Source of the DNA: Escherichia coli
GTDB taxonomy: Bacteria; Pseudomonadota; Gammaproteobacteria; Enterobacterales; Enterobacteriaceae
Length of the DNA stretch: 64,000 nucleotides
Strand: one strand, 5' to 3'
Assembly: GCF_041248615.1 (NCBI RefSeq)
Contig: NZ_CP158426.1
Shown here: in pieces, positions 18,467-18,971 of the stretch
How the letters are laid out: each line of letters begins with the position of its first letter
Numbering within the stretch: position 1 is the first letter of the stretch
Notes under the pieces: generated by a model
What the model was told of the DNA's origin: nothing
The model's input: the letters and a program-made list of their open reading frames with translations, nothing else
Database searches by the model: none
Position numbers and translations under genes: made by a program

Positions 18467-18542
18467 TGGAGCGGGAAACGAGACTCGAACTCGCGACCCC
18501 GACCTTGGCAAGGTCGTGCTCTACCAACTGAGCTATTCCCGC
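18467..18542 (-). tRNA. glyY: tRNA-Gly (GCC anticodon), third copy of the tandem array
   Basis: Minus-strand sequence GCGGGAATAGCTCAGTTGGTAGAGCACGACCTTGCCAAGGTCGGGGTCGCGAGTTCGAGTCTCGTTTCCCGCTCCA, a 76-nt cloverleaf with encoded CCA. The assignment of V/X/Y names by position is tentative. Confidence 0.95.
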
Positions 18543-18577
18543 TTGGGTGGTCTGTGCTTTATAGCACTTTCAAATTT

Positions 18578-18653
18578 TGGAGCGGGAAACGAGACTCGAA
18601 CTCGCGACCCCGACCTTGGCAAGGTCGTGCTCTACCAACTGAGCTATTCCCGC
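18578..18653 (-). tRNA. glyX: tRNA-Gly (GCC), second copy
   Basis: Identical 76-nt sequence to the other two copies, 111 bp upstream of copy 3. Confidence 0.95.
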
Positions 18654-18810
18654 TTAATCTTCGTCTTTCGAACCGCTACTGCCTTGGCTGCCTTCACTCA
18701 CCTTAGTCACTTACTTTTGTAAGCTCCCAAGGATTCGTTCAGTTGCCGCCTTGTCGCAATTCGAAATACTGCGATTGGGTGGTCTGTGCTTTGCAGCACT
18801 TTTCAAATTT

Positions 18811-18886
18811 TGGAGCGGGAAACGAGACTCGAACTCGCGACCCCGACCTTGGCAAGGTCGTGCTCTACCAACTGAGCTATTCCCGC
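18811..18886 (-). tRNA. glyV: tRNA-Gly (GCC), first (promoter-proximal) copy
   Basis: Identical 76-nt tRNA sequence; a conserved ~35-bp spacer (ttgggtggtctgtgcttt...caaatttt) precedes copies 2 and 3. Confidence 0.95.
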
Positions 18887-18943
18887 GTACTACTTAATTT
18901 TGCTTTCGTAATTTTCGCATTTCTGCGTCGTTACGGGAGGCGC

Positions 18944-18971
18944 ATTATACGAGAAATCTTTCCCTCTGCAA
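18944..18971 (-). promoter_or_regulatory. Candidate sigma70 promoter for the tRNA-Gly array
   Basis: On the minus strand: TTGCAG (-35), 16-bp spacer, TATAAT (-10), then a GC-rich discriminator GCGCCTCCC typical of stringently controlled stable-RNA promoters; an AT-rich tract lies upstream. Confidence 0.5.

Follow-up and report, generated by a model that had tools for sequence, protein, structure and literature searches.

The three tandem tRNA-Gly genes in the window (the whole 64,000-nt stretch of Escherichia coli DNA that we analysed, contig NZ_CP158426.1) are the chromosomal glyV-glyX-glyY operon of E. coli, an already known locus, which here carries a strain-polymorphic copy of an ERIC element within it. 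As a whole, we consider it highly probable that the region is explained by the known glyVXY operon, yielding one precursor transcript, with the ERIC copy as a neutral or nearly neutral passenger. The initial annotation had neither identified the locus as glyVXY nor mentioned its known coupling to datA, and it had left the longer interval of 157 bp between two of the genes unexplained. This interval contains a 121-bp ERIC/IRU insert, which is no part of the amplification that gave the array. Our additions, the ERIC nature of the long spacer and the copy-number alleles of the array, are modest and leave the current understanding of the operon unchanged.

ARAGORN called three tRNA-Gly(gcc) genes on the minus strand (18467-18542, 18578-18653 and 18811-18886), each matching the Rfam tRNA family (RF00005) with 69.1 bits (E=2e-14; gathering score 29). 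An identity check agreed with what had been read from the sequence at the outset, namely that the three 76-nt tRNA-Gly(GCC) sequences are identical to one another. In order of transcription they run glyV (18886-18811), glyX (18653-18578) and glyY (18542-18467), separated by intervals of 157 nt (18654-18810) and 35 nt (18543-18577):

18811 to 18886, minus strand: glyV, tRNA-Gly(GCC), first gene of the operon (ARAGORN, Rfam; identical to K-12 glyV)
18578 to 18653, minus strand: glyX, tRNA-Gly(GCC) (ARAGORN, Rfam, K-12 alignment and annotation)
18467 to 18542, minus strand: glyY, tRNA-Gly(GCC), last gene of the operon (ARAGORN, Rfam, K-12 alignment and annotation)

The only other tRNA that ARAGORN found in the 64-kb window is a tRNA-Phe at 48527. 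Two plus-strand ORFs, 18347-18706 (119 aa) and 18441-18722 (93 aa), lie antisense to the array. They had been suspected to be spurious, and indeed they read through the tRNA repeats on the antisense strand and have no RefSeq annotation. A permissive Rfam scan of the region returned only the tRNAs and a sub-threshold match to Y RNA-like YrlA (RF02553; 18490-18628, minus strand), with no family over the ERIC insert. The YrlA candidate was rejected at 40.3 bits, below its gathering score of 69; it arises because the tRNA-like domain of that model fits the stretch that runs from the 3' portion of glyX through the spacer into the 5' portion of glyY.

A 901-bp stretch of the region is 100% identical to E. 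coli NZ_OW967178.1 and is matched in 5,425 of the 5,426 complete E. coli genomes; the annotation under these matches shows orn and tRNA-Gly genes. Gene order in NZ_OW967178.1 is rsgA, orn, three tRNA-Gly genes, a 17-codon ORF, queG and nnr, and the K-12 reference names the genes of the locus glyV, glyX, glyY, yjeV and queG. Alignment and annotations thus agree on a conserved neighbourhood of orn, the gly array and yjeV/queG. Compared with K-12, the window is collinear and shows scattered substitutions and a single clean gap of 121 bp. We take the K-12 operon to be b4163-b4165, encoding tRNA-Gly3(GCC) at 94.7 min, upstream of datA. K-12 has four genes for tRNA-Gly(GCC), the major glycine tRNA, three of which belong to this operon. 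RefSeq annotates the 17-codon yjeV at 18180-18233 (minus strand), where it shares sequence with the 3' end of queG, which is encoded on the other strand; a putative yjeV promoter reportedly coincides in part with the attenuator and a DnaA box (PMC10950094).

Upstream of glyV, the following promoter and leader elements were assigned:

18978 to 18992, minus strand: A/T tract AAAAAAAATTTTTTA (transcribed strand), in UP-element position upstream of the -35 hexamer (read from the sequence)
18966 to 18971, minus strand: -35 hexamer TTGCAG of PglyV-X-Y (identical in K-12; within the published 28-bp deletion)
18944 to 18949, minus strand: -10 hexamer TATAAT, at a 16-bp spacing from the -35 hexamer (sequence, K-12 identity, deletion primers)
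18936 to 18943, minus strand: GC-rich discriminator GCGCCTCC (read from the sequence)
18887 to 18935, minus strand: 5' leader of the primary transcript (placed between the -10 hexamer and glyV; start approximate)

In the alignment, the segment from the -35 hexamer to glyV is identical between the window and K-12. Kasho et al. 2024 constructed a ΔPglyV-X-Y deletion by inverse PCR with primers that abut GGGGGG and GCGCCTCCC (PMC10950094); the 28 bp removed are therefore exactly TTGCAG...TATAAT. In K-12, this deletion abolished the datA read-through RNA and shifted the frequency of replication initiation (PMC10950094). The promoter initially proposed for the array, TTGCAG/TATAAT with a GC-rich discriminator, thus equals the K-12 segment deleted in that study, and, judged by sequence identity with this experimentally deleted segment, it is the real PglyV-X-Y, a promoter of the stable-RNA type. 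K-12 identity and the published deletion agree on this single promoter upstream of the array. A consensus promoter scan made no call at PglyV-X-Y because half of its -35 hexamer, 3 of 6 positions, departs from the consensus. Across four other Escherichia genomes, whose orn genes are 94.5-95.2% identical to that of the window, the core promoter does not vary, while the preceding tract (A8T6 here) differs among Escherichia lineages. From general knowledge of stable-RNA promoters, the tract at 18978-18992 is a candidate UP element. By analogy with rRNA and tRNA promoters, the discriminator GCGCCTCC may serve in stringent and growth-rate control. The predicted fold of the 5' leader (18887-18935) is weak. 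Removal of the 5' leader by RNase P is part of general tRNA maturation, and in this precursor it would take place at the 5' end of glyV.

The array contains two short spacer copies, one of which forms only part of the longer interval:

18775 to 18810, minus strand: spacer 1, 36 nt, with hairpin GUGCU-GCAA-AGCAC of 5 bp (100% identical to the complete glyV-glyX spacer of K-12)
18543 to 18577, minus strand: spacer 2, 35 nt, with hairpin GUGCU-AUAA-AGCAC (fold z=-3.9)

In the predicted fold of each, a hairpin of 5 bp closes a loop of 4 nt, and the A-rich and C-rich arms on either side stay unpaired. When aligned, the copies at 18543-18577 and 18775-18810 differ by 2 mismatches and 1 indel, which bears out the earlier statement that the spacers of about 35 nt are homologous. 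The order in which the copies had been described mixes the two strands: the 157-nt gap does lie between copies 1 (glyV) and 2 (glyX) if these are counted in transcription order, but the spacer then follows copies 1 and 2 instead of preceding copies 2 and 3, and the sequence directly preceding glyX is the inserted element, not the spacer motif. For the K-12 precursor, RNase E has been shown in vitro to cut efficiently 1 nt after glyY, a reaction that needs an unpaired glyX-glyY spacer (PMC4191395). In the strain studied here, the three minus-strand genes would all be transcribed leftwards into a single precursor, which RNase E and RNase P would split within the short spacers.

Downstream, glyY is adjoined by the DnaA-inactivating locus datA (18198-18460 in the window), in which the following features were located:

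18408 to 18455, minus strand: attenuator TglyV-X-Y, a hairpin followed by GUUUUUGUUG, overlapping DnaA box 1 of datA, ATATCCACA (fold; K-12 identity)
18198 to 18407, no strand assigned: datA core reached by read-through from the operon (DnaA-box matches, primers, alignment)
18373 to 18381: DnaA box 2, TTATCCACA (mutagenesis primers of PMC10950094)
about 18296 to 18320: IHF site of datA (mutagenesis primers of PMC10950094)
18211 to 18219: DnaA-box match TTATTCACA (DnaA-box search)

The attenuator hairpin is identical to that of K-12 (-14.3 kcal/mol, z=-2.0), and DnaA box 1 lies inside it at about 18440-18448. This agrees with the description of TglyV-X-Y as a leaky terminator/attenuator overlapping DnaA box 1 (PMC10950094). 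The only terminator-like site returned by a consensus terminator scan lies about 190 nt downstream of glyY. Two of the three exact DnaA-box matches in the window fall within 260 bp downstream of glyY, in agreement with the published position of datA, and an inverted repeat at 18196-18209 / 18371-18384 consists of two DnaA boxes. In K-12, read-through transcripts keep IHF off datA before replication initiation (PMC10950094). Transcription in the present strain would likewise stop in part at the leaky attenuator after glyY, with the remainder entering datA. As an observation apart, the IHF-site allele of the window (AACTTACTGATATATAGGTTGAAAA, 18296-18320) shows 6 clustered differences from K-12, among them a change of the IHF core from ATCAA to ATCAG, and it resembles alleles of cryptic-clade Escherichia. 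Of the 5,426 complete E. coli genomes, only 12 have the exact 84-nt allele and only 47 yielded any megablast match to it; the allele may represent an introgression or a functional datA variant.

The 157-nt interval itself divides into the 36 nt that follow glyV, which are the entire K-12 spacer, and 121 bp that are missing from K-12:

18654 to 18774, minus strand: ERIC/IRU element, 121 bp, between spacer 1 and glyX (gap against K-12; repeat family; fold)

Since AA stands on either side of the insert, its boundaries can be placed only to within 2 bp. In a distant search, 5,003 of 5,426 genomes had sequences related to the insert, at a median of 7 places each, which makes it a dispersed repeat. 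The other copies that we examined are intergenic, at puuR-puuC, queA-acpH and dxs-yajO, and the insert can be aligned from end to end with them and with the primers ERIC1R and ERIC2, whose sequences were taken from PMC3696847. The core of the aligned copies, GTGAATCCCnAGGAGCTTACAnAAGTAAGTGACTGGGGTGAGCG, is the reverse complement of ERIC1R joined to ERIC2; against ERIC2, a hand count from the alignment gave 3 mismatches in 22 positions for the gly copy. The predicted fold of the insert is a single long hairpin (-51 kcal/mol, z=-4.9), and a consensus fold of six ERIC copies shows compensatory changes in 12 of 36 stem pairs. Among these is a paired change, CC to TT and GG to AA, which sets the gly copy apart from the primer consensus. 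Such elements, also called IRU or RU-1, are reportedly enterobacterial miniature inverted repeats of roughly 127 bp (Sharples and Lloyd in 1990 and Hulton et al. in 1991 are said to have described them); the insert, with 121 bp as against about 127 bp and a long imperfect hairpin, is close to this format. ERIC termini are characterised by terminal inverted repeats, TA ends and a target-site duplication (PMC2229807, PMC3184786). The insert ends in an AATC...GATT inverted repeat flanked by a 2-bp AA repeat, the empty site CCACCCAAGCGGG contains no TA, and the terminal 10 bp or so diverge from the other ERIC copies. From its dispersal, its match to the primer core and its hairpin, we therefore assign the 121-bp insert to the ERIC/IRU miniature inverted-repeat elements, as a member with atypical ends. 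No second ERIC copy was found in the 64-kb window.

The consensus scan found no terminator-like site inside the array, and the ERIC hairpin is not followed by a U-tract. The hairpin should therefore not terminate transcription, and glyX and glyY should be co-transcribed with glyV. The element would then be transcribed along with the tRNAs as a long hairpin and probably be discarded during precursor processing.

Coverage of at least 80% of the ERIC-type query was reached in 1,621 of the 5,426 complete E. coli genomes (about 30%), and the insert itself was present at an identity of at least 95% in 1,605 records. K-12, ST131, O157:H7 and Nissle-type strains have no insert. A scan of species-representative genomes, which required an exact match to the spacer motif and did not retrieve E. 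albertii, E. fergusonii or the E. coli representative, returned four genomes, all of them ERIC-type: E. whittamii, Escherichia sp. E1V33, Escherichia sp. MOD1-EC7003 and SCPM-O-B-8794, the last being a divergent genome labelled 'E. coli'. All four have the insert at identical junctions. Their inserts are 96.7-100% identical to that of the window, as compared with 94.5-95.2% for orn and 91-98% for the orn-glyV and glyY-queG spacers. The shared junction, together with an insert that is more alike than orn, argues that the insertion is either old or has been spread by recombination. MOD1-EC7003 agrees with the window at 100% in the insert and in spacer 1 but at 95% in orn, and its orn-glyV spacer can be aligned over only about half of its length (95%), a pattern that suggests recombinational exchange of the operon. 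Strain-specific ERIC sites as such are documented, with 14 sites absent from K-12 catalogued in other E. coli strains (PMC10969869); our literature search on ERIC in connection with datA or tRNA operons turned up no specific report. An ERIC copy inside a tRNA operon in about 30% of E. coli offers a natural pair of alleles for effects on precursor processing and datA read-through.

This raises the question whether the hairpin does anything in the operon. It could slow or redirect RNase E or RNase P, or make RNA polymerase pause in its progress, and so change the ratio of glyV to glyX/Y or the read-through into datA; it could also persist as a small RNA of about 120-150 nt. Were the read-through altered in this way, about 30% of E. 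coli and several further Escherichia lineages would time replication initiation differently from K-12. Several lines of evidence are compatible with such a role. The insert is retained at the same site with 96.7-100% identity in four other Escherichia lineages, in which the flanking spacers are 91-98% and orn 94.5-95.2% identical to the window. Its hairpin is strongly stable, with pairs that covary across ERIC copies, and ERIC copies in Yersinia change the stability of flanking transcripts via RNase E (summarised in PMC2229807 and PMC10969869). RNase E requires an unpaired spacer in the glyV-X-Y precursor (PMC4191395), and read-through from PglyV-X-Y controls IHF binding at datA (PMC10950094). 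However, the insert is missing from about 70% of E. coli, all standard model strains among them, and these are not known to suffer from its absence; the covariation characterises ERIC elements as a family and tells nothing about the gly copy in particular; and the insert matches no Rfam family. Beyond the conservation of the insert nothing was found in support of a function, which we accordingly consider improbable; most likely, the ERIC insert is a neutral or nearly neutral passenger.

A wholly different origin of the long interval, as a degenerate fourth tRNA-plus-spacer unit or as an ancestral unique spacer deleted in K-12-type strains, could appeal to the long form in four non-coli Escherichia genomes, which may represent the older state, with the K-12 type having arisen by precise loss. 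But the 121 bp have no similarity to tRNA, and related copies occur in unrelated intergenic regions, at a median of 7 per genome, with full-length alignment to one another and to the ERIC primers. Such an origin is refuted as far as the kind of sequence is concerned, and we give it practically no credence. The empty K-12-type site may indeed result from precise loss; whether it is ancestral or due to precise excision leaves the identity of the insert as an ERIC element unchanged.

The array proper appears to have arisen by tandem duplication of a 111-bp unit of tRNA and spacer, as was originally proposed. The spacer-plus-tRNA units (111 and 112 nt) differ by 2 mismatches and 1 gap. Perfect 111-bp direct repeats, which had also been claimed, do not exist: exact repeats in the array extend to no more than 80, 78 and 86 bp, and when the 111-nt register 18467-18577 is compared with 18578-18688, only 85 of the 111 positions agree. 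The expectation that the repeats drive gain and loss of units is borne out by natural four-copy and two-copy alleles, which differ in steps of 111 bp. For counting, a K-12 three-copy query at 80% coverage proved unfit, because overlapping pieces are joined in the coverage figure, so that two-copy and ERIC-type genomes also reach 93-100%; copy classes were instead separated with a synthetic four-copy query, and the two-copy counts are only approximate. With this query, 16 of the complete E. coli genomes have an uninterrupted four-copy array, for example O157:H7 17B6-2 with spacers of 36, 35 and 35 nt. Estimated from class sizes and ERIC counts, non-ERIC arrays have three copies in about 3,700 genomes and two copies in roughly 75-90, among the two-copy arrays that of ATCC 25922. 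OkiPb01709 is ERIC-type with two copies and has lost one glyX/Y unit. Two singletons were also seen: in NWU_3, a 17-bp deletion in spacer 1 takes half of the hairpin, and in IH5, a 37-bp deletion joins glyX without its terminal A to glyY without its first G; either could be a mutation or an assembly error. Some of the copy-number and singleton variants could be such errors. Taken together, two- and four-copy alleles and singleton variants support repeat-mediated gain and loss of units, which would still go on through recombination between the identical tRNA copies. The array thus varies naturally between two, three and four copies by a 111-bp unit, a finding that does not alter the present picture of the operon.

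The closest known system is the K-12 operon itself. The window shares with it three identical 76-nt tRNAs, the flanking genes (rsgA and orn on one side, then yjeV and queG), the promoter, leader, spacer 1 and attenuator, all identical, and a spacer 2 of equal length (35 nt). It differs by the 121-bp ERIC insert, which gives a glyV-glyX interval of 157 nt instead of 36, by two substitutions in spacer 2 and by the cluster of substitutions in the IHF site of the downstream datA region. With the ERIC family, the gly copy has in common the length class, the core of reverse-complemented ERIC1R and ERIC2, the long imperfect hairpin, and its location in a transcribed non-coding region at a strain-polymorphic site; it also ends in short inverted repeats (AATC/GATT). 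Unlike other ERIC copies, it sits inside a tRNA operon and not between protein-coding genes, is flanked by AA instead of the TA reported for ERIC termini, and has outer ends unlike their TATAC...GTGTATA. Head-to-tail identical tRNA genes with short spacers behind one stable-RNA promoter are also found in the valV-valW and leuQ-leuP-leuV operons of E. coli. According to PMC2190699 and PMC7049720, the tRNAs of such operons are separated by RNase P/RNase E. In comparison with other tandem tRNA operons, the coupling to datA by read-through is described as unique to glyV-X-Y (PMC10950094).
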